Origin: a virus
Lineage: Duplodnaviria > Heunggongvirae > Uroviricota > Caudoviricetes
Virus record (IMG/VR): IMGVR_UViG_2660238215_000016
Coordinates: 1 to 10,639 of that record
Reading direction: 5' to 3' (one strand)
Length of the DNA: 10,639 nt
Under the pieces are notes generated by a model. The model made no database searches. It saw nothing but the letters and a program-made list of their open reading frames with translations, and had not been told where the DNA came from. The position numbers were made by a program, and so were the translations under genes. Shown here piece by piece: positions 1-10,639 of the stretch (within the stretch, counting starts at the first letter, position 1; each line of letters starts with the position of its first letter).

Positions 1-291
1 CGGAAGGCCTTCACCATATGCCATGCTGTTTGACTGCCCCGCCAGAACCACAACAAAGTAATACTCCGGGTCTCTGGTGGCGCTGATTACTGTGCCTTCT
101 CCATCCGACGGCTTCACCAACACAGGTGTGGTGACATCACCTTCCGCCGCAATGGCCTGCATCAGAGTATAAGGCGTGATGGCCACCGGGCTGCCAAATG
201 GCTGCCACCCCTCCTTCAGTTTTTGTGTCAGCTTTTCCGCAAGATCTGACGGCGACGCCGCCCTGACCACATCGTAGTGTTTAAATACCAT
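1..291 (-). CDS. Partial CDS (N-terminal part; runs off left edge): NanS-p-like phage sialate O-acetylesterase (DUF1737-like N-terminus leading into SASA/SGNH domain)
   Basis: Minus-strand translation from ATG at 291 reads MVFKHYDVVRAASPSDLAEKLTQKLKEGWQPFGSPVAIT...VVVLAGQSNSMAYGEGLP; the GQSN block is the characteristic first motif of SASA/SGNH esterases. SD-like GGAAAAGG lies 3-5 nt upstream of ATG 291; an in-frame ATG at 306 (MVEKVMVF...) is an alternative start. Not in the ORF track because it is truncated by the window edge. Family assignment from memory of prophage NanS-p proteins. Confidence 0.5.
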   Translation of the reverse strand, partial: MVFKHYDVVRAASPSDLAEKLTQKLKEGWQPFGSPVAITPYTLMQAIAAEGDVTTPVLVKPSDGEGTVISATRDPEYYFVVVLAGQSNSMAYGEGLP

Positions 292-1382
292 GACCTTTTC
301 CACCATATAAAGGAACAATAAATTCTTTTCTGATAGAGATTTAAATAAAAATACATTATTTTACAAAAAAATAATATCCATTACAAAAACATCCGATTTT
401 TTTATATTCCCGCTCATCCTGCTAATTTGTATTACAAAAAAATGAAACAACTTGAACCAAAGTGATACAAAATTAGAAAAGAAAACCCCAGGAAGACAAA
501 GAAGACGATCTTTTTCAATGAGTTACACTGATTTATTGACTATGATTTTTAGCAAAACAATCGAAAGCAATGTGTACCGAGAAGGTTAAAAGATGGAATG
601 GATAGTTATTGACACAGTGATATGCCCATCAAGCGGAATAACGTTTTCAACTGTATGGTGTAAAATAAAGTTGATAATCTGGTATCAGTCAGATGTGTTC
701 CTGCCACCCGGAAGTATTCTCACACCTGTTAACTCAGGTGTGATTATGGATAATAAGCTGCTTCCATTAACCATTTACAACGTGACACCATTTAACAGAA
801 AATTCTGGTTCCTTATCAGAAATCAAAAAGAGTGCCCCGGGAATTCAGTTAAAACAAAAATAAAATGCCATAATAGTATGTGTGTACTGATGATATGCCC
901 GTATGGATTATATAAGTAACAACATATGAATACATAACAGATAAACTATTGACCTTGAGGCTCATCCATATAAAGAAGAGCTCTCCGAAGAGGTGTGTAT
1001 TTGCATGCACATTCCTTTTTTGCTCTATGTCATGACCTCCGGCGACTCTATCCCGGCACCAGCAAACCCGCATCATTCTCGTTTCCGGTGTCTCTAAAAC
1101 CACAGCACACCTGCCCCCCCGCTGAGGGAGGGAAGCACTGTATCCGTACACTCAGCAACAGAAATACCACCTGCTCACTGCGCTACATATCAGCAACAAT
1201 TTTATACCCGAACATTATCATTCAACAGCATGGTTCACAACAACATCATAACCCAGGAAACGAGAATCAGATCAAAAAAACAGAAATTTTACATGAAAAA
1301 TACTTTTTATTAATATTGATAGCGTCGTACCACAAAATACGATGAATTATCCCTGAACTTAACATTAATGCCAGTATGTATT

Positions 1383-1402
1383 GCCCGCTGGTATCAGCGG
1401 GC
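1383..1402. other. Perfect 8-bp GC-rich hairpin (GCCCGCTG-GTAT-CAGCGGGC) about 110 nt downstream of the methyltransferase gene
   Basis: Inverted repeat read directly from sequence. No clean U-tract on either strand, so it is an RNA-structure or processing candidate rather than a canonical intrinsic terminator. Confidence 0.4.
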
Positions 1403-1513
1403 GCTTTAAGAGATCGTATTCATGACTACCTGGGAAAAAGCTATTTTACTATTGTCAGTTTTTATTGCAGCCTTATCTGTCTACTTGCTTCACAGCCTGA
1501 ACTGACCATATCT

Positions 1514-2590
1514 TTATTCATCCTTCCCGTCATCAATTGAGCATGTAAGGATGTGACTAATCTCCTTAACGGTCTGCGCAAAACGTTCTGCCTCCAGTTC
1601 AACACCAGTTGCACGACGCCCGAGCGCCATAGCTGCTTTTATGGTTGAGCCAGAACCCATGAAAAAATCCGCCACCAGGTCACCCGGACGACTGCTCGCG
1701 CAGATTATCTGCCGCAGCATTTCTGCCGGTTTTTCGCACGGATGTTTCCCTGGATAGTACTGCACCGGTTTATGCGTCCACACATCGGTGTACGGCACCT
1801 GCACCGTCACACCGAAATACCGCCGCAAATTTTTATATTCACTCAGCAGTTCCATGTACTGTCGGTTCAGCTCACTGTATGTGCTGACCAGTTGGTAATG
1901 GGACTTTTCCAGTTCTCCCCGCTGATGTTTCTCTTCTGCCACCCGGGCAAACAGCGACTGTAATTTCAGATAATCGCTTTCGTTCGGTAGCTGCCACTGA
2001 CTGGCACTGAACCAGTGCGACACCATGTTTTTCTTTCCTGTGGCATCTGCAATCTGTTTTGCTGTTATCCCAAGAGCAGCACGCGCATCACGAAAGTAAG
2101 AAATCAGCGGGGCCATCACATGCTGTTTCAGTGCCCTGCCCTTCGCCTCATCGCCATCATCTTTCGGACGATACGGCCCCTGATAATGTTCCGCGAACAG
2201 AATGCGTTCTGTGGCCGGAAAATACGCCCGCAGGCTTTCCTTGTTGCACCCGTTCCAGCGTCCGGACGGCTTCGCCCAGATAATATGGTTCAGCACATTG
2301 AAGCGTTCACGCATCATGATTTCAATGTCAGATGCCAGGCGATGGTCACAGAACAGGTAAAGACTTCCGGCAGGTTTCAGCACCCGCCAGAACTGCGCCA
2401 GACACTGGTCCAGCCACTTCAGGTAATCATCGTCGCCCTTCCACTGGTTATCCCAGCCCTCGGGCTTCACTTTAAAGTATGGCGGGTCTGTGACTATCAG
2501 ATCGACAGAGTTTTCCGGTAAGGTCTGGATAAATTCCAGGCAATCAGCGTTGATTAACTCACAACTGGATATTTTTACAGTATTAAGCAT
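1514..2590 (-). CDS. Phage-encoded DNA methyltransferase (N6-adenine/N4-cytosine amino-methyltransferase, beta-class motif order)
   Basis: 358-aa ORF with ATG start. Motif IV DLIVTDPPY near the N-terminus and SAM-binding motif I FFMGSGST near the C-terminus (order IV then I). Position downstream of Q in the late transcript matches lambdoid prophage orphan methylases. Confidence 0.85.
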   Translation of the reverse strand: MLNTVKISSCELINADCLEFIQTLPENSVDLIVTDPPYFKVKPEGWDNQWKGDDDYLKWLDQCLAQFWRVLKPAGSLYLFCDHRLASDIEIMMRERFNVLNHIIWAKPSGRWNGCNKESLRAYFPATERILFAEHYQGPYRPKDDGDEAKGRALKQHVMAPLISYFRDARAALGITAKQIADATGKKNMVSHWFSASQWQLPNESDYLKLQSLFARVAEEKHQRGELEKSHYQLVSTYSELNRQYMELLSEYKNLRRYFGVTVQVPYTDVWTHKPVQYYPGKHPCEKPAEMLRQIICASSRPGDLVADFFMGSGSTIKAAMALGRRATGVELEAERFAQTVKEISHILTCSIDDGKDE

Positions 2591-2740
2591 GGATCATTAA
2601 GCCTGTCTCTGATAGGCTCATTCTGCTTTTGCGCAAAGCAGTGGGCCTGAGGTTTGCTTGTGAACCCAACGCATGAGCAGATGGCTGGTAGGTGCCCCTA
2701 ACACCCACCAGCCGCCCATTTACCACAAATAAAAAAGCCT

Positions 2741-2938
2741 TCACTGCGGAAGGCGTCTGTAACAACCGAACTGATAGTCTGCCAGACCCGCCATAACAAG
2801 CTGGGTCAGTATTAACTGGCAGCGTTCGCGTGAAAGGTAAGTATTCTGCGCAATCTCCCCGACTGTCGCCGGGTCGGTAACGCTTAATTCATTAAACACC
2901 ACTCTGGCGGTTTCTGTCATATCCTGCTGTTTTAGCAT
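2741..2938 (-). CDS. Small hypothetical phage protein (65 aa), possibly helix-turn-helix-like
   Basis: Intact ORF with ATG start and upstream AGGGAAAA SD-like sequence, same orientation as flanking phage genes, between the tR'-like terminator and the methyltransferase. No family recognised. Confidence 0.4.
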   Translation of the reverse strand: MLKQQDMTETARVVFNELSVTDPATVGEIAQNTYLSRERCQLILTQLVMAGLADYQFGCYRRLPQ

Positions 2939-3060
2939 GTCTTTTTTCCCTTTTGGTTAACGTGACATACCAATAACTCTTGTCCAAAAAGCCAGTAAGC
3001 AGAAAGACCGGTATTCGCAACCACCAGCGCATTTAACGCCCCGTGCCGTTTTTCAGTCAT

Positions 3061-3082
3061 AAAAAAACCCGCAAAAAGCGGG
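3061..3082 (-). terminator. Rho-independent terminator immediately downstream of the Q gene (tR'-like late-operon terminator)
   Basis: On the minus strand: stem CCCGC, loop TTTTT, stem GCGGG, followed by seven T (plus-strand A-run 3061-3067). It sits about 80 nt downstream of the Q stop codon, matching the lambda pR'-qut-tR' arrangement. Confidence 0.75.
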
Positions 3083-3161
3083 CTCTTTCAAATGTCCATG
3101 TCTGCTATTCGCCTCGCGGTACAGCTTTGCGAAGCTTACCGGAATTGAAGCAGTTTTTACG

Positions 3162-3728
3162 TCAAAAAGCAATAACTTTTTTCTCTATACCAAAAGCCAT
3201 AACCATTGGTTTGTACAAAATAAATTCTGCCACCTTTAGCCAATGCTCAATGCGTCTTTCACAGGTTCTTAAACTCCATTCCGGATGTGCATCATTCAGC
3301 AGTTCAGCCATTTTGCGCTTAGTCATCCCCCGCCCCACATAACGCTGACTCAGAACATTGAGCAGCCCGGGATAACCTGCCAGTACTTCACCAATAACCC
3401 TGTCGATTATTAACGCCTCTGAATCGGTACAATGTGCCAGCCAGCTTTTTTGATTGCCGTTGATCATATCCCGCAAAAAAGCCTCAAGTTCAGGTTTGTC
3501 CAGACCCGCTTTTTTCATCCTCCGGAGCGCCTCGTTAATTGCCGTTTTTGTCAGCTTTTTAGAGGTCAGTAATTGGTTGAACATATTTCCCGTCTTACCG
3601 TCGCCAATATACGACCAACGCCCCCACATACGCAGTTTCCCCTGGATCCAGACACTTTCCAGCGTTTTCAGGCGTAAATGCTCACCGCTTTTGCCTGTAA
3701 TTTCCGGGTATATCATATTTATGCTCAC
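3162..3728 (-). CDS. Q-like late-gene antitermination protein
   Basis: 188-aa ORF directly downstream of rusA (GTGA start/stop overlap at 3725-3728; in-frame ATG at 3716 is an alternative start) and directly upstream of a strong terminator. N-terminal region LRMWGRWS...FNQLLTSKKLTK resembles the WGAW...GLITSKVKSR region of 933W/82-type Q proteins (recalled, not searched). Synteny rusA-Q-terminator is typical. Confidence 0.6.
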   Translation of the reverse strand: MSINMIYPEITGKSGEHLRLKTLESVWIQGKLRMWGRWSYIGDGKTGNMFNQLLTSKKLTKTAINEALRRMKKAGLDKPELEAFLRDMINGNQKSWLAHCTDSEALIIDRVIGEVLAGYPGLLNVLSQRYVGRGMTKRKMAELLNDAHPEWSLRTCERRIEHWLKVAEFILYKPMVMAFGIEKKVIAF

Positions 3729-4084
3729 TCACTTTCAATTTTGTAAATCTTCACGCCCAGCCGCCCACCAGAAACGAGCTGACCGCGCACAATATTGATT
3801 TCATCAAACTGCTCGTCGTCTATGAGAAGTCCGGCATGCGTCAGCGCATCCAGCGGTGCTTTCAGGATATTGTCCAGATCACGACGGCGCTTATCCGGTG
3901 GCTCTGCAATAATCTTTATCGCCAGCCTTCCGGACAGGCTTAATTTCAGCCGCTGCTGGCGAACAATAAGCGCCACAGCCCGGCGATAACGCTTTCCCTC
4001 CTCCGAGATAAAATATGTGCTGCCACGGCGTCGCCAGTAAGTGTTCACCGTCGGCGGGTAAGGTAAAACCAAATCTATGAGCAT
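3725..4084 (-). CDS. rusA: RusA Holliday-junction resolvase (crossover junction endodeoxyribonuclease)
   Basis: 119-aa ORF. LPYPPTVNTYWRRRG...PDKRRRDLDNILKAPLDALTHAGLLIDDEQ matches the RusA family catalytic core (DRRRRDLDN / D-x-L motif region); length about 120 aa as in E. coli RusA. Good SD (AGAGGTGA) 5 nt upstream of ATG. Confidence 0.9.
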   Translation of the reverse strand: MLIDLVLPYPPTVNTYWRRRGSTYFISEEGKRYRRAVALIVRQQRLKLSLSGRLAIKIIAEPPDKRRRDLDNILKAPLDALTHAGLLIDDEQFDEINIVRGQLVSGGRLGVKIYKIESE

Positions 4085-4096
4085 CAGTCACCTCTT

Positions 4097-5146
4097 TTAC
4101 CCAAGCACGCCAGTTGCAAAGGCGTGATCAAGAAAACGAAAAATTAAATCAACCTGAGAGCCATGCTTTTCTTCGAACGCCAGCGGATCCGCATGAAGCT
4201 CGTTGTGATGCTCCCGACACAGCGGTAGCGTGAAAATATCGTGAGATTTTGTCCCCATTCCGCCCTGACCATGACCAATCAGGTGATGGGGATCGTCGGC
4301 TGGCTTACCACAACACGCACACGGCTGAGTCTTCACCCAGCGTGTGTATTTCTCGTTAACCCAGCGGCGACGTTTAGGTCGTTTCATGAAAGATTCCGGA
4401 GACTCAGGATCAACGGCAATGCTGACCACCGTCTTTTCCTGTGGTGGGTTCTGTTGCTGGTGGACGTCAGGCAGTAACGCAATATTTTTTGTGCGCTGCT
4501 TCAGTATGCTGGTGGCGGTCTGCTCTCCCGGCACGATGTCGCTTTCACGGTACATTGAGCGGATTTTTTCCGCACGCACCCCCAGCGAACGACGTAATAC
4601 CGCTTCCGGTAGCGCGTCCGCCACCTGATTGCGGACCGCCCACCAGGATAATTCAGCCAAAGATAATTCACGCTCCTGCGTACCGCTTATTGCGTGACCG
4701 ATGACGTCAATCATCCATGCTGACAGGTTTTGATGAGCAAGTTGCTCGAGTGATTCGGATGTCTGGTCACGCAGCTGGTTGTCGCAGTGCCAGCACAACA
4801 CCATTGCGCCGGTACCATAACGGTGAATGACAGTTTCGCTGTGATGATAATCGCCGTGTGGCCACTGGCAGGATTTCACGTGACGCAACAGCCAGTCAGA
4901 CAATGCACCAGCACCACCAGCAGCACGAATCACCCGTGCGTTACTGAAAAACGGCAGCAATGTTTTGTCTTCCACCAGCGGCTGGCGAACGGCAGGAACG
5001 ACCCCGGACGGCAGATTACGCATGCTTTTCGGTTCCGGCTCCATCAATACCCGGGTATTGTGGAATACTGGCATGGATTCACGGCCCGGCTTAACGATCA
5101 CCAGCCCGAGTTCCGGTACCAGAACAGGTCGAAGTAATACCCGCAC
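4097..5146 (-). CDS. DUF968 family prophage protein (YdfU-like) with C-terminal Cys/His-rich HNH-like region
   Basis: 349-aa ORF, the same length as K-12 Qin YdfU from memory. C-terminus CACCGKPADDPHHLIGHGQGGMGTKSHDIFTLPLCREHHNELH is a Cys/His cluster typical of DUF968. Lies in the conserved position upstream of rusA. Confidence 0.75.
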   Translation of the reverse strand: MRVLLRPVLVPELGLVIVKPGRESMPVFHNTRVLMEPEPKSMRNLPSGVVPAVRQPLVEDKTLLPFFSNARVIRAAGGAGALSDWLLRHVKSCQWPHGDYHHSETVIHRYGTGAMVLCWHCDNQLRDQTSESLEQLAHQNLSAWMIDVIGHAISGTQERELSLAELSWWAVRNQVADALPEAVLRRSLGVRAEKIRSMYRESDIVPGEQTATSILKQRTKNIALLPDVHQQQNPPQEKTVVSIAVDPESPESFMKRPKRRRWVNEKYTRWVKTQPCACCGKPADDPHHLIGHGQGGMGTKSHDIFTLPLCREHHNELHADPLAFEEKHGSQVDLIFRFLDHAFATGVLG

Positions 5147-5147
5147 G

Positions 5148-5426
5148 TTACCTCCAGATGCGTTGCTGGAATGTGCGAGACGGACGCGGTGGGCGTTCAG
5201 AGTAAGGAAGCCTGACGGAGATTATCCAGTGACGGTAGTCGAGACTAAGGGCTTTCTTAACCTCGTATCCGCGCCTGCGGTAACACTGAATTATCCATTC
5301 AGCCTGCTCTTCAGTACATGGAGGGTGTTGGAACCATTCAGACTTGAATGCGTGAGAATACCGCTCGTGCGTGCAGGCAAGAACGGGCGAATTATCAGAA
5401 TTGTAATATTTTACGTTGCGTGCCAT
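5148..5426 (-). CDS. Hypothetical phage protein (92 aa), tightly coupled to the downstream DUF968 gene
   Basis: ATG start with GGAGAA SD about 7 nt upstream; its stop codon is 1 nt from the start codon of the 4097..5146 gene. No family recognised. Confidence 0.55.
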   Translation of the reverse strand: MARNVKYYNSDNSPVLACTHERYSHAFKSEWFQHPPCTEEQAEWIIQCYRRRGYEVKKALSLDYRHWIISVRLPYSERPPRPSRTFQQRIWR

Positions 5427-5492
5427 CGGTTTTCTCCGGTGGCACGGTGTTACTCAGCGGGAGTTCAGCCCCGCGCAAGATTGTAGATGAGT

Positions 5493-5744
5493 TTATTCTT
5501 CTGCAAAAGCTGAAAAGCCTGCTTTTATTCCGATCTCTTTCAGTGCCTGTAATGAAGTGACAAACTCACCTTCGCGCAAGATAAATCCGTCTGTCACTCG
5601 ACCATCCACAAAATTAATTAACGCAGCCCCATTCTTTCGCAAACACATAATGCGGTAATGACTAACAAGATTTCCATTTTCAACGCACACAGCATAGAGG
5701 CCATCTTCACAAAAAATTTTACGCAGTTCTTCGATGTTCATCAT
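5493..5744 (-). CDS. Small prophage protein, Rem-like (83 aa)
   Basis: ATG start with GGAAGGA SD. Length and position (between hokD and the ydfU-like gene) match the Qin prophage rem gene; assigned by synteny and length from memory, not by sequence comparison. Confidence 0.55.
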   Translation of the reverse strand: MMNIEELRKIFCEDGLYAVCVENGNLVSHYRIMCLRKNGAALINFVDGRVTDGFILREGEFVTSLQALKEIGIKAGFSAFAEE

Positions 5745-5860
5745 CAGAATCCTTCCGGATAATTAGCTCTCCCCTTTAAGGGACCATCCCTCTTATCCCT
5801 GCGCGCTACTTAAGTATTTTTGATTCTATTCCGGCGCCGTCCAGAACTTCAAACGCGTTG

Positions 5861-5891
5861 AAAATAAAAACAAAAACCCGCCGAAGCGGGT
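5861..5891 (-). terminator. Rho-independent terminator at the 3' end of the hok mRNA (fbi/terminator region)
   Basis: Minus strand: hairpin ACCCGC-TTCG-GCGGGT followed by TTTTGTTTTTATTTT, about 70 nt downstream of the hok stop codon. Confidence 0.65.
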
Positions 5892-5960
5892 TAAGTGCGG
5901 GTGCGTTGAGGATGCCTGCCACATCAGAGGTGGCGAGGGATTTCTCCCTCGCCGGGTCTC

Positions 5961-6116
5961 TTACTCCTCAGGTTCGTAAGCTGTGAAGACAGCGACCTCC
6001 GTCTGGCCGGTTCGGATTCGTACCTCGCAGAGGTCTTTCCTCGTTACCAGTGCCGTCACTATGACGGTTAAACAGATGACGATCAGGGCGATTAACATCG
6101 CCTTTTGCTGCTTCAT
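5961..6116 (-). CDS. hokD: Hok-family type I toxin (HokD/RelF-type small membrane toxin)
   Basis: 51-aa translation MKQQKAMLIALIVICLTVIVTALVTRKDLCEVRIRTGQTEVAVFTAYEPEE matches HokD as I recall it; AAGGAG SD about 9 nt upstream of ATG at 6116. Confidence 0.9.
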   Translation of the reverse strand: MKQQKAMLIALIVICLTVIVTALVTRKDLCEVRIRTGQTEVAVFTAYEPEE

Positions 6117-6173
6117 AGCCTGCTTCTCCTTGCCTTTCGGCACGTAAGAGGCTAACCTACATGTGTCTAGCAT
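5961..6173 (-). CDS. mok-like overlapping reading frame (modulator of killing) through which hok translation is coupled
   Basis: 70-aa ORF starting at ATG 6173 and co-terminal with hok (MLDTCRLASYVPKGKEKQA-MKQQK...), the same architecture as mok/hok in plasmid R1 hok/sok. Confidence 0.5.
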   Translation of the reverse strand: MLDTCRLASYVPKGKEKQAMKQQKAMLIALIVICLTVIVTALVTRKDLCEVRIRTGQTEVAVFTAYEPEE

Positions 6174-6200
6174 GAAATTGGCCTCAGATTAATGTTAAGC
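6135..6200 (+). ncRNA. Predicted Sok-like antisense RNA region (coordinates approximate)
   Basis: Placed by analogy with R1 hok/sok, where Sok is antisense to the hok leader around the mok SD and start. Here the mok ATG is at 6171-6173 and the tac-like 5' element of the hok mRNA (GCTTGAGGCTATCTGTCTCA on the minus strand) lies near 6265-6285. Promoter and ends not confidently read. Confidence 0.3.
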
Positions 6201-6291
6201 GTCTTGCAGGACGCGTAATGTTAACTGGGGCTTTTCTCTATCTGCCTTTGGTGTTCATGCCTGAGACAGATAGCCTCAAGCACCCGCAGCC

Positions 6292-6320
6292 ATTCTACTT
6301 AACTCCCGTTACCCCGCCAA
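6292..6320 (-). promoter_or_regulatory. Putative sigma70 promoter of the hok/mok mRNA
   Basis: Minus strand: -35 TTGGCG (6315-6320), 17-nt spacer, -10 TAGAAT (6292-6297), immediately upstream of the tac-like GCTTGAGGCT leader element. Confidence 0.4.
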
Positions 6321-6429
6321 TATGAAATCAGTCAGAAAGGCGATCCATAAGAATAATGAATTCTGTAAGGCAATAGTCTCACTGTCTAACATATCTTACC
6401 TGATTACTTTACAATATAATAATTCATAG

Positions 6430-7065
6430 TTAAATCAAATGAATGTCATCATCCAATAATTCATTAGTAGTAATACTACCTTTTTTGAAAAAATTTTCAT
6501 TTGCCTCAGCAATTTTTGCATCATTAACAAATTCATCACACATCCCAAAATAATGAAAAAATCTATTTAGTTTACATATTCCAATGGTATAGTGCCCTTT
6601 AGGTGTTTTGTCCACATAAACACGATTTGCTTTTATAATATGCATCTCATAATCATCTATATGTGGATGAACGATGCGAAATGATGCAGATGCAGTTGGA
6701 TAGTTTTTGCGCCGCCCCCCATTTATTACGGGTTCAAATAACACTTCATTTTTACCTTTGAATTCATTGCAGTCAGGACATACTACACATAGATTCTTAG
6801 GTTCAAAAATAAAACATAGATATTGAGATTTTGGCACAATATGCTCTATAGGAGCAGCTTGTGCAGCTCTTACCCCAATAGGCTCATGACAATATACACA
6901 TTCTAGCTTTTGTTCTTCTCTGTAATGATTTCTAATTTCTGCACGGAGAACTTGCAAATCATCATCTCCCCAGTTGGTATGCTTAAAATCTGGAGAAGAC
7001 AATTTTTTCTCAATAATATCTAATGACTCTGCGCTGAATCTAATTGGATTTTTAATTTTTGGCAT
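6430..7065 (-). CDS. HNH endonuclease, PtuB-like (downstream gene of a Septu-like ATPase+HNH pair)
   Basis: His-Me finger read from translation: CVYCHE ... EHIVPKS ... CVVCPDCNEFKGKN (CxxC...H...N...CxxC). ATG at 7065 with AGGTG upstream; the ORF track start (7074) is an in-frame GTG. Overlaps the upstream ATPase gene by 14 nt (23 nt with the GTG start). Strongly AT-rich by eye. Confidence 0.8.
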   Translation of the reverse strand: MPKIKNPIRFSAESLDIIEKKLSSPDFKHTNWGDDDLQVLRAEIRNHYREEQKLECVYCHEPIGVRAAQAAPIEHIVPKSQYLCFIFEPKNLCVVCPDCNEFKGKNEVLFEPVINGGRRKNYPTASASFRIVHPHIDDYEMHIIKANRVYVDKTPKGHYTIGICKLNRFFHYFGMCDEFVNDAKIAEANENFFKKGSITTNELLDDDIHLI

Positions 7066-8425
7066 AAATTTCACACACCTGAGATACGGAATTTACGAGT
7101 TCATTAATAGGGTCATTACTATTAACGTTTTCAAGGAGAAGCTGGAGTTGTTTTAATTCACGCCAATTATCATCTGTTACTAACTTAGCAGTCTTAACTT
7201 TTGAAAGTAAATTGAAAGCTAATCTGGCAATGTATTCATTCATAATGCCAGGGGCATCAAATAGTTCCGCAAGTTGATAGTCTGCAGACCGGTTGCTAAA
7301 GTATTTTGCTTTATAAAGATAACTTTTCGACAAAGATGTTATATAACAACCTTTATTCGGCAAATTGGATATTATTTGTGGTGAATGAGTTGCAATTATG
7401 AATTGACAACCTGAGTAAGTTAAAAATGCTTTTGTTAACATAATGATAAACTCTTCCTGCCATCGAGGATGCAAGCTTATTTCCGGTTCATCAATTAGTA
7501 TTATAGAACCATCAGTTATATGCCCTGCAATTCCAAGCAACATCACTAATAAACATTGTTCTCCCGAGCTCGCACGTTTAAGTGACATGGGACCATAGCT
7601 TTTTTTTATGAGTCGCATATCCATCAATCTCATGAAGCCAGCGTTCATAAGTTTAAGAATTGATCTAGAAAAATAATTATTCGCATAAGTCGAGCCAACC
7701 AATGTTTCACCATTGGTAAAATCGACTGACAAGGTTACAGCCCTACGTTCAGGTTCAAATCGATTAATTTCAACCAGTGCTTCGTAAATATCATGACGTG
7801 ATTCGGAGTTTAACTTTAAGAGACTCTCAATATTCTTCCTGTCAATTTTTATATTGTATTTTAAATATAACTCCTTAACTTCCGTTAATATCTCATCTGA
7901 ATATACACCAATGAAGTTATAGTCAGGAGTGTCCGGTCCGTTGTAAGTTGGTTTAAATACAAACTCTATATGGGGCTCAAAATCAATAGAATGAAAAACA
8001 TCGAGTAAATTTGCAGGATTTTCTGAATAAGCAAGTTTCTCTAGCCAACCTCTCGCTGCTGAAGATAAAAGGGATACGGCATTTGATACGCCGAAGGGGC
8101 CTTCTCCACGCATACCCACATAGCGATAATTATTTTCTTTCCTTTGGTGATTTAATGACCTACGCCCTGGAGGGAATTTATCGAATGGGCTGGTAGATAC
8201 GGCAATTAACTTTGGTGTTATTTCTCTGTCAAATAATGGATTAAAAGTTTTCAAGAAATGAACATCTTGAATACAGTCTTTAGCAATCTGAGATAACAAT
8301 CTGCTTTTTCCAACGCCATTTTTACCTACAATTACTGTAAAAATATTCGCATTATCAGAAACATCACCTTCTATAGCAAGTTTTAAGGTTCGACTATCAT
8401 GATGGGTATAATATAGTCTTTTCAT
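7052..8425 (-). CDS. ABC-type (AAA_15/AAA_21-like) ATPase, PtuA-like (upstream gene of a Septu-like pair)
   Basis: 457-aa ORF with Walker A GKNGVGKS near the N-terminus, ABC-signature-like SSGEQ, Walker B IILIDEPE and H-loop IIATHSP near the C-terminus. This spacing is typical of OLD/PtuA/AriA-type ABC ATPases. AT-rich; overlaps the downstream HNH gene. Confidence 0.85.
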   Translation of the reverse strand: MKRLYYTHHDSRTLKLAIEGDVSDNANIFTVIVGKNGVGKSRLLSQIAKDCIQDVHFLKTFNPLFDREITPKLIAVSTSPFDKFPPGRRSLNHQRKENNYRYVGMRGEGPFGVSNAVSLLSSAARGWLEKLAYSENPANLLDVFHSIDFEPHIEFVFKPTYNGPDTPDYNFIGVYSDEILTEVKELYLKYNIKIDRKNIESLLKLNSESRHDIYEALVEINRFEPERRAVTLSVDFTNGETLVGSTYANNYFSRSILKLMNAGFMRLMDMRLIKKSYGPMSLKRASSGEQCLLVMLLGIAGHITDGSIILIDEPEISLHPRWQEEFIIMLTKAFLTYSGCQFIIATHSPQIISNLPNKGCYITSLSKSYLYKAKYFSNRSADYQLAELFDAPGIMNEYIARLAFNLLSKVKTAKLVTDDNWRELKQLQLLLENVNSNDPINELVNSVSQVCEIYAKN

Positions 8426-8481
8426 TTTATTTTTCTCTCATTAAAATGCTCTTAATTAAGAATACCTATGCCTTTAACAGG

Positions 8482-8510
8482 CTCATAGTTATGATTTGTG
8501 ATGCTTTCAA
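8482..8510 (-). promoter_or_regulatory. Putative sigma70 promoter for the ATPase-HNH operon
   Basis: Minus strand: -35 TTGAAA (8505-8510), 17-nt spacer, -10 TATGAG (8482-8487), about 55 nt upstream of the ATPase ATG, in an AT-rich leader. Confidence 0.3.
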
Positions 8511-8809
8511 AAGGGTATGTAACTAAGTATTGAACTCTACACCTAAGATTCTAAGATTTTTAAATTAAAGTAGTTAAACATGCTTTTGATTGTACTCATT
8601 CTATGTCCATCGTTGCTGCATGTCTAGATATCGTGCCCCGCTATTGTTATGTAATGATATGATGGACGCCCTGTCTGAAGCAGCCAGTGAAATATTTTTA
8701 CTGTCTGCGTTTTCTACAGGAGTAAATCACATGAGCACAATCAGAGTTGTTGGTATTGATATTGACCTGTGCCCAATTTTTTGAGACATATATTGGTACG
8801 CTCTTGGCA

Positions 8810-8831
8810 CAGGGCTGCTGCTGCAGCCCTG
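8810..8831. other. Strong 9-bp hairpin (CAGGGCTGC-TGCT-GCAGCCCTG) immediately downstream of the recombinase fragment
   Basis: Perfect inverted repeat read from sequence; no adjacent U-tract. May be a terminator-like structure or a recombination/attachment-site remnant. Confidence 0.4.
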
Positions 8832-8837
8832 ACAGCT

Positions 8838-9083
8838 TTAGACTTCGATCGATTCAGAGATCTCTAATGCATCATCAACTTCTATACCCAGATAACGAAC
8901 TGTGCTTTCCGTTTTCTTATGGCCCAACGGAAGTTGGATCACCCGGAGATTCTTAGTTTTCTTGCAGACAAGGCAAGGTTTTGTTCTTCTCATGGAATGT
9001 GTGCTGTAAAGCGAATCTTCGAGACCAAGCTTTTCTCCCCCCTATGAAAGATTCGGTTATATTGCAGGATTGATATGTGTTGG
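8838..9083 (-). pseudogene. C-terminal fragment of a tyrosine recombinase/integrase (truncated remnant)
   Basis: Minus-strand frame translates to ...FHRGGEKLGLEDSLYSTHSMRRTKPCLVCKKTKNLRVIQLPLGHKKTESTVRYLGIEVDDALEISESIEV*, carrying the C-terminal catalytic signature H-x-x-R ... LGH ... T-x-R-Y. Only about 80 codons are open (stop at 9084-9086), and a full-length integrase cannot fit before the 280-aa gene, so it is a truncated relic. Different frames in the neighbouring 8953..9135 and 9206..9406 ORFs are consistent with decay. Confidence 0.45.
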
Positions 9084-9463
9084 TTAGTACCGACCCGAGA
9101 TCGGAACAAGTAGTCTTTACTGCGTAAATTGCCAAGCTTTATCAATGCAGAAACAGCTTCTCTTGTCCCTTTGGTTATCTCAAATTGGATAGGACTGCCA
9201 GTTTTTCAGTTGCAGCACCGTAGCTCTGCTTGAAACCGAGCTAAATCACGCGTTTTACCTTCCAGTTCAAGCCGGATTTGGAGCCCCCAGATATGAGATA
9301 TCTGAAGTGGTCTTTTTGGGCCTATGATACTGTCTTTGTTCCTCGGTGACGTATTCATACTCAAATCTCCTGCAATGTGGAAGATTTGAGTATGGTTGTC
9401 TCTCAAGAGCGAAATAGGTCAACTATAACTAGTTGTTGTGCATGTACGAATTCTGCCAATTAA

Positions 9464-10306
9464 TTATTGACAATAAAAAATTCTGGAATGTTCGAAATCA
9501 TCATATCGAATTATAATCTGGTTGACTGCATCTATTGTTGGCGCCATTTCAGTTATAATATCTCGATAACCTAAAGAGTTAAATACATTTACTAAGGCCT
9601 CACACCGCAGGCCAATAGCAATTACGACATTATAAATTGCCAGCCGTTTATTTTCTTGTTTAACTGCAAGAGTGAGTTCGATAGCAGTAGTTTTATCGCT
9701 TTGGATTGCATTATATAGAGATACTATATTTGCCATATCATCAGAGAATGTATGTATTGAATCACAAAGAGGGACGTAATAGGCATGATAGTGTGTTTCC
9801 CAGCCAATTACTTCGAAAAGCTTTTTGGTTCCAGGATATTCAGGTGTATTTGGCCACAATCTATTAAACATATCAGTTAGCTCTTTTCCGATACGAATCC
9901 TTTCATCTGCTGCTGGATTAGTCATTTCTTTGGATTTTAAACACTCCAGCCACCGTTTCCCATTACTATGAACTAATTTCTTACTACCCTTGAGTAATGC
10001 TTGTGCATTTTTTCCATCATCAATTGCTATATAAAATTGATTGGCAGCCTGTTCCATTATAACTCTAGTTAATACTTCCGATGCTGAAAAGGCTCCGGTA
10101 CTCAAAGAAAATATAGCCTGATTACTAAGTTCATTCAGTACATTAAAGTAATGTAAAACCATCAATTTTTGTTCCACCCCCTTTAGGTTATCTATTTTAT
10201 CTTTATGCCTCTCAAATTTCGCATGGATATATTTATTTATCGCGGCTATTTTTTTTACATCTTCGTCGAAATCAAACGGGCAACGTCCAAACGATTTTTT
10301 CCTCAT
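9464..10306 (-). CDS. Hypothetical protein (280 aa), unrecognised family; accessory/defence-island cargo
   Basis: Long intact ORF with ATG start, near-consensus SD (AGGAGG, 6-nt spacing) and a perfect -10 TATAAT at 10345-10350 upstream. AT-rich like the ATPase/HNH genes. No motifs I can assign with confidence. Confidence 0.75.
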   Translation of the reverse strand: MRKKSFGRCPFDFDEDVKKIAAINKYIHAKFERHKDKIDNLKGVEQKLMVLHYFNVLNELSNQAIFSLSTGAFSASEVLTRVIMEQAANQFYIAIDDGKNAQALLKGSKKLVHSNGKRWLECLKSKEMTNPAADERIRIGKELTDMFNRLWPNTPEYPGTKKLFEVIGWETHYHAYYVPLCDSIHTFSDDMANIVSLYNAIQSDKTTAIELTLAVKQENKRLAIYNVVIAIGLRCEALVNVFNSLGYRDIITEMAPTIDAVNQIIIRYDDFEHSRIFYCQ

Positions 10307-10344
10307 ATATTCCTCCTGTTTTACAATCTCCCATAAGTTGGAAA

Positions 10345-10350
10345 ATTATA
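10345..10350 (-). promoter_or_regulatory. Putative -10 element (TATAAT) of the promoter for the 280-aa gene
   Basis: Perfect TATAAT on the minus strand about 40 nt upstream of the ATG; the candidate -35 (TTATTT, 17-nt spacer) is weak. Confidence 0.35.
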
Positions 10351-10568
10351 CACTGGAGATTACCTATAAATAACTGCGCACGATAGCTAGTCAGTGCAAG
10401 AAGTACAACCAAGTGAACGGTGCGTATCAGATACCTAGCTTAAAGTTCGCGATAGCCGTACTCTGTGTATTAGCTCAGACATTACCTGACAGGTTGAGTA
10501 GATAGAATCGAATCAAAGCTGACAGTCTGGTTTGGACTGTGGGGTCAACCGATGGATGCAACACACAG

Positions 10569-10639
10569 TGAACCGCCCCGGAAATCCTGGAGACTAAACT
10601 CCCTGAGAAAGAGGTAAACAGGATGACTAAAAATACTCG
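10569..10639 (+). mobile_element. Left end (terminal inverted repeat and leader) of an IS3-family insertion sequence, IS629/IS1203-like; continues beyond the window
   Basis: TGAACCGCCCCGGAAATCCTGGAGACTAAACTCCCTGAGAAAGAGGTAAACAGG followed by ATGACTAAAAATACTCG matches, from memory, the IS629/IS1203 left terminus and orfA start (MTKNTRF...). IS3-family ends begin with TG. Confidence 0.7.
10623..10639 (+). CDS. Partial CDS: IS3-family transposase OrfA, N-terminus only (MTKNT...)
   Basis: ATG at 10623 preceded by GAGG SD inside the IS left end; truncated by the window edge. Confidence 0.6.

Follow-up and report, generated by a model that had tools for sequence, protein, structure and literature searches.

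What is the role of a 280-amino-acid (aa) gene that is located in a prophage next to a recognisable defence system, with the remains of an integrase gene on one side and an insertion sequence (IS) on the other? The question was raised by a stretch of 10,639 nucleotides (nt) of a Caudoviricetes sequence (IMG/VR record IMGVR_UViG_2660238215_000016, positions 1 to 10,639), hereafter referred to as the window. The gene in question, at positions 9464-10306 on the minus strand, occupies the variable slot between replication genes and the nin/Q region of a lambdoid prophage, beside a Septu system. An earlier note on the window had described it as unrecognised and as the most probable place for something undescribed. 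Both terms were overstated: the gene is a member of a catalogued family without assigned function, DUF5677 in Pfam and phrog_4167 among the PHROGs, in a well-known kind of locus, it is annotated in RefSeq, and the family was singled out in a 2025 preprint (PMC12632615). Our favoured reading, for which we see the chances as evenly balanced, is that of an autonomous single-gene cargo of variable mobile-element slots; its product would most likely be an anti-phage protein that acts on its own, via a pocket of polar residues.

Gene integrity and family membership

The open reading frame (ORF) starts with ATG, ends with TAA and comprises 280 intact codons; its description draws on the ORF list, Pfam, PHROG, RefSeq, the ratio of nonsynonymous to synonymous substitution rates (dN/dS) and an AlphaFold2 (AF2) model. 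That the ORF is a real gene, as the earlier note had assumed, is confirmed by six copies from four genomic contexts, all with exactly 280 codons and with dN/dS values of 0.20-0.39 at a dS of up to 0.22. An exhaustive HMMER scan gave relatives in 54 clusters (50 % identity), nearly all being single-domain proteins of 260-330 aa. Among 5426 complete Escherichia coli genomes 57 carried the gene, 19 with the window allele and 38 with an allele of 92 % identity, and the annotation was intact in 57/57.

The protein obtained 37.4 bits against DUF5677 (PF18928; gathering cut-off 27.1), with residues 49-195 aligned to positions 3-159 of the 166 profile positions, and it matched phrog_4167 over the full length (residues 1-280 to profile positions 1-280/280, E 2.8e-176). 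RefSeq uses the name 'DUF5677 domain-containing protein', e.g., for WP_001227887 in the enteropathogenic E. coli strain E2348/69. In 45 aligned homologues the Pfam matches were to DUF5677 only, a second family was present in 0/45. Residue conservation was derived from the alignments A2 (45 sequences) and A3 (19 sequences), in which E77, L79, R81, E85, N89, W119, P158, F164, Y173, D182, S183, H185, D190, N193 and Y225 were invariant or near-invariant; the window protein keeps all family-invariant residues. Thus in threshold score, full-length profile match, length of ~280 aa and invariant residues the protein equals the DUF5677/PHROG 4167 family, while its Enterobacterales/Pseudomonas clade has an identity of only 17-29 % to most family members. 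The search for related loci used a closer alignment, A4, as query, because A2 was too divergent.

The earlier note had seen no enzymatic motif by eye, and profile and structure searches likewise yielded no known motif or defence-family match. Membership in a known defence, abortive-infection (Abi) or NCBIfam family was ruled out by zero matches in PADLOC, the Pfam Abi families and NCBIfam; for Abi_2, AbiH, AbiEii and the other Pfam Abi families this holds for the protein at E <= 1 and for the 45 relatives at E <= 5. Homology to housekeeping, structural or replication proteins was looked for, and none was found. A profile search for relatives with solved structure among the PDB sequences gave just spurious matches to glutamate mutase with E above 0.2, and remote homology to the defence proteins HEC-08, PD-T7-1 and PD-T7-5 was rejected at an hhalign probability below 1 %.

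A cassette with a decayed recombinase

The decayed integrase proposed for the left side of the gene was borne out. Searching with tblastn and the 194-aa protein of E. coli S88 located a short tyrosine recombinase, consisting of the catalytic domain only, at 8838-9358 on the minus strand. This former partner of DUF5677 has an 82-bp deletion and frameshifts relative to the intact S88 copy, and RefSeq annotates it as a pseudogene ('frameshifted; internal stop'). The intact 194-aa recombinase of S88, encoded after DUF5677, matched Pfam Phage_integrase (4e-17) and contains the residues R..K..HxxR..H..Y. Both genes are part of a cassette: the S88 copy, in a P2 prophage, has 1,876 bp in common with a contig from Buttiauxella at 96.6 % identity, and the window is ~89 % identical to both. 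The Buttiauxella copy adjoins a Tn3 transposase and resolvase. The recombinase gene was intact in S88 and five further loci (L035-L039), reduced to 35 codons in two loci in P2 prophages (L018/L034) and frameshifted in the window; DUF5677 was intact in every cassette copy, whatever the state of the recombinase. The persistence of DUF5677 alongside a decaying recombinase identifies it as the selected cargo. Presumably the gene arrived in the lambdoid prophage as a cassette of ~1.9 kb, composed of a leader with promoter, DUF5677 and the 200-aa catalytic-domain-only recombinase; the latter would have decayed later, DUF5677 having been kept intact.

Genomic contexts of the family

In E2348/69 the locus belongs to a lambdoid prophage at potC, with the replication gene P on one side and hokD-rem-DUF968-rusA-Q on the other. 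A second, unrelated lambdoid prophage (L040) carries DUF5677 directly after O/P-like replication genes, so that the position after the replication genes occurs in two unrelated prophages of this type. P2-like prophages, that of S88 among them, carry the gene between the genes for tail-fibre assembly and the sheath; this position corresponds to the classical Z/fun slot. A second P2-like element (L041) has it in the tail module, beside SLATT and SMEK genes. In a 2026 study on P2 and P4 elements, 16 % of the P2 defence systems were assigned to a hotspot within the tail genes (PMC13586616).

Outside these prophages, a Pseudomonas fluorescens locus combined DUF5677 with the same clade of short tyrosine recombinases (35 %/53 % identity), DUF6119 and the Gabija protein GajA (5e-226). 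Other homologues had SMODS/AGS_C plus SLATT_6 (L006), a PLD nuclease (L003) or a RES toxin (L010) as neighbours, formed the edge of an inovirus prophage (L024, L055), were cargo of an integrative and conjugative element (ICE) beside an integrase and an Mrr-type nuclease (L053, L054) or adjoined ParDE (L050, L051). In Vibrio parahaemolyticus (JAZGSK010000018.1, 1131-2261) the gene is a single-gene integron cassette between attC-type repeats of ~125 nt, in an array of at least 12 in a chromosomal integron. This cassette and the varied mobile-element contexts indicate that DUF5677 is autonomous. Given as raw counts without background comparison, ~11 of 19 independent contexts were a prophage hotspot, an integron, an ICE or a site beside a transposon; recognised defence-type genes occurred within ~5 kb in ~6-7/19, and neither was present in 4/19, again as raw counts. 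The homologues are not consistently located outside defence islands, as would be expected for a gene without relation to defence, but mostly in mobile elements and defence neighbourhoods.

True plasmid carriage was considered and rejected, the sole 'plasmid' match being an 8.4-kb fragment of the same locus. Some homologues have closely abutting ORFs: a 237-aa ORF begins 31 nt 3' of the homologue in L019/L020 (8850-9563; a clade with 53 % identity to the window protein), and a 78-aa ORF ends 3 nt 5' of the homologue in the Aliarcobacter inovirus context of L024/L055 (6762-6998). Neither had a Pfam or PADLOC match, nor are they conserved across the DUF5677 family. The S88 prophage has in addition, at 17337-18416 of the locus sequence (L002), a gene for a 'GTP pyrophosphokinase' (RelA/SpoT-like), inserted in opposite orientation between the genes for baseplate V and an S-like virion protein; a further cargo slot, occupied by a toxSAS-type gene, is conceivable here.

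Predicted structure and candidate active site

The AF2 model, calculated from the 19-sequence alignment, is confident overall and all-alpha with about ten helices (predicted local distance difference test score, pLDDT, 85.8; predicted template modelling score, pTM, 0.83). A Foldseek search of the model against PDB and BFVD found nothing. In the model E77, R81, E85 and N89 share one face of helix 73-94, and D182, S183, H185, D190 and N193 are placed in a loop and the helix 182-201; W119, Y173 and Y225 are likewise conserved. This arrangement of polar residues on one helix face and the adjoining loop and helix is suggestive of a pocket for catalysis or ligand binding in the helical bundle, and the family-invariant polar cluster would be the likely working part of the protein. 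A HEPN-like topology with a nuclease or nucleotide-directed activity is a speculative extension of the model.

Relation to Septu and to the recombinase

The nearest defence genes constitute a complete two-gene Septu system at 6430-8425. The ATPase PtuA (457 aa, 7052-8425) and the HNH protein PtuB (214 aa, 6430-7074) are encoded on the minus strand by genes overlapping by 23 nt, and both matched PADLOC models over the full length (1e-165 and 1e-83, respectively). That DUF5677 is an accessory third component of this system, one of the options in the earlier note, has a basis in the shared strand, the neighbourhood and the AT-rich composition, which was found as described (GC content of 0.35-0.38 over the DUF5677 ORF and 0.31-0.38 over the ATPase/HNH pair versus 0.46-0.57 in the prophage backbone). 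Moreover, the window allele of Septu, present in 19/5426 complete E. coli genomes with an identity of at least 99.8 %, was always accompanied by the DUF5677 allele (at least 99 % identity; 19/19). However, these 19 genomes represent one haplotype of at least 99.8 % identity, indicating linkage by descent and not by function. Septu was missing from 38 E. coli genomes with DUF5677 and from every DUF5677 context examined outside E. coli, and PtuA and PtuB match models for a system of two genes. The genes are separated by ~1 kb, which contains the dead recombinase and, at ~8796, the boundary of the cassette; operon continuity is absent, and ptuA has an upstream promoter-like site of its own, as has DUF5677. 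The co-occurrence in one haplotype thus leaves the third-component idea unsupported, and by the co-occurrence counts together with the cassette boundaries it is rejected as extremely improbable: DUF5677 belongs to a separate cassette that is mostly found without Septu.

A closer relation might exist to the recombinase, as a directionality or accessory factor or as an addiction or maintenance function of the cassette. The same clade of short tyrosine recombinases adjoins DUF5677 in E. coli, Buttiauxella and P. fluorescens, and in Bacillota an enrichment and probable co-transcription with serine recombinases was reported (PMC12632615). The association with two unrelated recombinase superfamilies speaks, however, for a cargo rather than a cofactor. 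Only 57 of 845 E. coli genomes with the recombinase contain DUF5677, the recombinase pairs with many unrelated neighbours, and most distant homologues of DUF5677 have no recombinase nearby. Purifying selection on DUF5677 continues where the recombinase gene is frameshifted or deleted, which makes a service to the recombinase improbable. The same selection bears on the possibility that the ORF only hitchhikes in the cassette and is non-functional or in decay. The dead recombinase, the IS 263 bp upstream, the cryptic-looking prophage and the weak -35 region might point to this. Six copies of equal length with dN/dS values of 0.2-0.4 at a dS of up to 0.22, intact annotations in all 57 E. coli genomes, the retention of all family-invariant residues and an IS that spares the ribosome binding site and the -10 hexamer render it hardly credible. 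A cargo gene of prophages, a so-called moron, may also have tasks other than defence, for instance counter-defence by inhibition of a host immune system, to the benefit of the element's establishment, lysogenic conversion or modulation of the host physiology. The diversity of the carriers (P2-like, lambdoid and inovirus prophages, ICE, integron), the fact that temperate phages also keep non-defence genes in their variable slots, the absence of a recognisable nuclease, nucleotidyltransferase or TIR-type effector from the all-alpha fold and a published assay of one family member in which no activity was reported (PMC12632615) would fit such a role. Yet anti-defence genes are rare in P2 elements (28/1511; PMC13586616), and the occurrence of homologues at ordinary chromosomal sites as well as in a sedentary integron is more expected of a gene beneficial for the host. 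The strict R/E/N/S/H/D/N set looks enzymatic, in contrast to a stoichiometric inhibitor, and the same recombinase has validated defence genes in the equivalent slot. We regard a non-defence role as rather unlikely.

Proposed function as a stand-alone anti-phage protein

In the favoured reading, DUF5677 would be a soluble all-alpha protein and an intact, selectively maintained single-gene moron of mobile elements, with a stand-alone anti-phage role of the exclusion or Abi type after expression from the prophage. The defence role is inferred from sequence and context, and the chemistry is speculative. The earlier note had named a stand-alone anti-phage or Abi gene as a candidate; with regard to genomic context, the gene is a reasonable candidate for defence or exclusion on its own. 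In being a single AT-rich gene with an own promoter in a prophage hotspot, DUF5677 resembles P2 Fun(Z), Tin and DUF4238 (Rousset et al. 2022). PD-T7-1 and PD-T7-5 (Vassallo et al. 2022) are also single-gene cargo of prophage hotspots, and PD-T7-1 or HEC-08 adjoins the same recombinase unit in other strains, but neither sequence nor profile comparison relates DUF5677 to PD-T7-1, PD-T7-5 or HEC-08, and it is only a candidate.

Several observations weigh against a defence function. None of the 5027 hidden Markov models for defence proteins in PADLOC-DB v2.0.0 matched the window protein at E <= 1, nor did any NCBIfam model, and no copy was found in 50,697 genomes of isolated phages, even at the protein level. 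Homologues in Aeromonas, in Sulfurimonas (between recN-like and nadK) and in two Pseudomonas loci are plain chromosomal genes without a mobile-element or defence signature, and the context sample is small, ~19 independent contexts without a background comparison. The pLDDT of the AF2 model decreases to 65-70 at residues 181-210, which bear the DS-H-D-N motif, and the fold searches returned generic helical bundles only, leaving the mechanism unsupported. A conserved R located 4-6 residues before a conserved H is absent from A2 and A3, R81 being followed by E85 and N89 and H185 being preceded by D182-S183; DUF5677 differs thereby from the HEPN-domain Abi and toxin proteins (AbiV, AbiD/F, MNT-HEPN toxins) with the canonical Rx4-6H. 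Finally, in the preprint one DUF5677 ORF was tested in Enterococcus faecalis against six phages and was not listed among the three strong and two weak positives of nine ORFs (PMC12632615); this ORF is a distant relative of the window protein.

In Bacillota defence loci, according to the same preprint, DUF5677 is significantly enriched next to serine recombinases and probably transcribed together with them (PMC12632615). Of the P2-hotspot papers, Rousset et al. (2022) covered only the gpA-gpQ hotspot (PMC9122126), and the accessible text and supplements of PMC9122126 and PMC13586616 contain no mention of E. coli DUF5677 proteins or PF18928. If DUF5677 protects against phages, a widespread single-gene system with a probably enzymatic all-alpha mechanism would be added, with a range from Enterobacterales, Pseudomonas, Vibrio and Aeromonas to Campylobacterota and, according to PMC12632615, Bacillota. 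An anti-phage role would also explain why DUF5677 stays intact in prophage slots despite the decay of the recombinase. Otherwise it is just one more prophage moron. The family has no solved structural relative, and its sole published test (PMC12632615) was performed outside the Proteobacteria, in E. faecalis.

The ~700-bp recombinase unit

The recombinase gene is part of a unit of ~700 bp, represented in the window by 8796-9414, with ~57 nt of 5' sequence, the 200-aa recombinase and a 3' hairpin (CAGGGCTGC-AACA-GCAGCCCTG). Besides the window, the aligned or sampled loci included L002 and L042-L048. The homology stops sharply at both ends in every aligned locus, and the flanks are unrelated between loci. 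At the 3' end, an alignment of ten loci places the tail of the unit at 8796-8837 (minus strand), with the hairpin CAGGGCTGC-AGCA-GCAGCCCTG in the window, and homology ceases there. At the 5' end, a repeat search and an alignment of nine loci revealed a palindrome at 9354-9396 with 15-nt arms (one mismatch) and a 9-nt spacer; its core has perfect 13-nt arms at 9356-9368 and 9382-9394. The palindrome, ~20 nt inside the 5' boundary at ~9414, holds the Shine-Dalgarno (SD) sequence and the ATG of the recombinase, folds as RNA with -25.1 kcal/mol (z = -4.4) and is conserved throughout the copies of the unit; it might act as an operator, as the core site of the recombinase or as an occluder of translation. 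A cassette flanked by two such palindromes was rejected, as there is one copy per locus.

The unit was detected in 845/5426 complete E. coli genomes. Its neighbours in the sampled loci include PD-T7-1 (3e-156), in the same lambdoid position as DUF5677 in the window, HEC-08/DUF3644 in three loci (1e-173), PD-T7-5 (8e-102), DUF4297 plus an SMC-like ATPase and a restriction endonuclease in a tandem arrangement as for DUF5677; further neighbours were dynamin-family, ETEC_3214 and CBS proteins and several uncharacterised genes. With PD-T7-1, HEC-08 and PD-T7-5 next to the unit, the slot of DUF5677 holds validated or candidate defence genes elsewhere, and the unit looks like the mark of an exchange site for defence cargo. 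This is reminiscent of RADS (Andersen et al. 2025, PMC12632615), in which a small site-specific recombinase marks a locus with diverse defence neighbours as well. The bait of RADS is, however, a serine recombinase in Bacillota, or tsr25 in Bacteroides, whereas here a 200-aa tyrosine recombinase in units of ~700 bp marks loci of Enterobacterales. According to the same preprint, tyrosine-recombinase baits also mark defence loci (PMC12632615). The unit could serve as bait for new defence genes of Enterobacterales, extending the idea of recombinases as markers, and this by-product may be more useful than DUF5677 itself. A bolder version of the favoured reading is put forward only tentatively, as a possibility that we doubt more than we believe: DUF5677 would be a new all-alpha family of single-protein immunity with a new catalytic constellation of E/R/E/N, on one helix, and DS-H-D-N residues, spread by P2-like and lambdoid prophages, integrons and ICEs and, in Enterobacterales, as cargo of a previously undescribed ~700-bp unit, itself the mark of a site at which ~16 % of E. 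coli genomes exchange defence genes.

Expression signals and upstream leader

The earlier note had ascribed strong expression signals to the gene. Both elements named are present on the minus strand: AGGAGG as SD sequence at 10312-10317, 5 nt 5' of the ATG (GGAG is kept in the S88 copy), and a TATAAT -10-like hexamer at 10345-10350, 38 nt 5' of the ATG and kept in S88, with a weak -35. An acceptable -35 was missing for this TATAAT, the best being TTATTT with 2/6 matches, and a TGn extension was not found. A consensus promoter scan did not call the site, and with 5 promoter-like sites in 8400-10639 versus 7.1 +/- 2.5 in shuffles it showed fewer rather than more than expected. By these sequence features the gene has a good SD and -10, but not a demonstrably strong promoter.

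The non-coding upstream part of the cassette, delimited by blastn, covers 10307-10568 (minus strand) and is ~89 % identical to its counterparts in P2 and Buttiauxella. An IS3-family insertion interrupts it at 10569; uninterrupted copies extend ~360 nt 5' of the ATG. A structured RNA or a small ORF in this leader was rejected: Rfam matches and conserved ORFs were absent, and the conservation was about neutral. The IS proposed for the right side was confirmed as the left end of an IS3-family element at 10569-10639 (TGAACCGCCCC...), with the orfA start MTKNT at 10624; the insertion is 263 bp from the ATG and leaves SD and -10 untouched. The insertion is absent from E2348/69; in strain 2013C-4974 a similar position is occupied by an IS3-family element of the opposite orientation relative to DUF5677.

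The recombinase remnant and DUF5677 with its -10 are enclosed by a 35-nt imperfect inverted repeat at 8621-8655 and 10359-10393 (27/35 complementary). In 100 dinucleotide shuffles a score of 27 was never reached (maximum 26, mean 22.8). Of the two arms, the left one overlaps a -35-like hexamer 5' of ptuA and the right one spans the -35 region of DUF5677; an inverted orientation of the segment between the arms was not seen in the 19 genomes. The S88 locus (L002) has a different repeat, a 30-nt imperfect inverted repeat (CTGACAGTCTG...) at 9000-9029 and 11414-11443 that brackets the cassette together with a 125-aa ORF, and a third copy of the motif at 11307-11334.

Other features of the window

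The region 1514-5744 was assigned to the late-regulatory part of a lambdoid prophage by the annotation of E2348/69 and the Pfam labels of related contigs. It encodes a DNA methyltransferase (1514-2590), a DUF1133/Q-like antiterminator (3162-3728), RusA (3725-4084), a DUF968 protein (4097-5146) and Rem (5493-5744). Between this part and Septu, a sub-threshold isrK-like match was located at 5871-5952, followed by a hok/sok type I toxin-antitoxin locus at 5961-6285 on the minus strand. The latter consists of a Hok-family ORF at 5961-6173, corresponding to hokD in E2348/69, and an Rfam sok match at 6111-6285 with 118 bits at a gathering score of 59.

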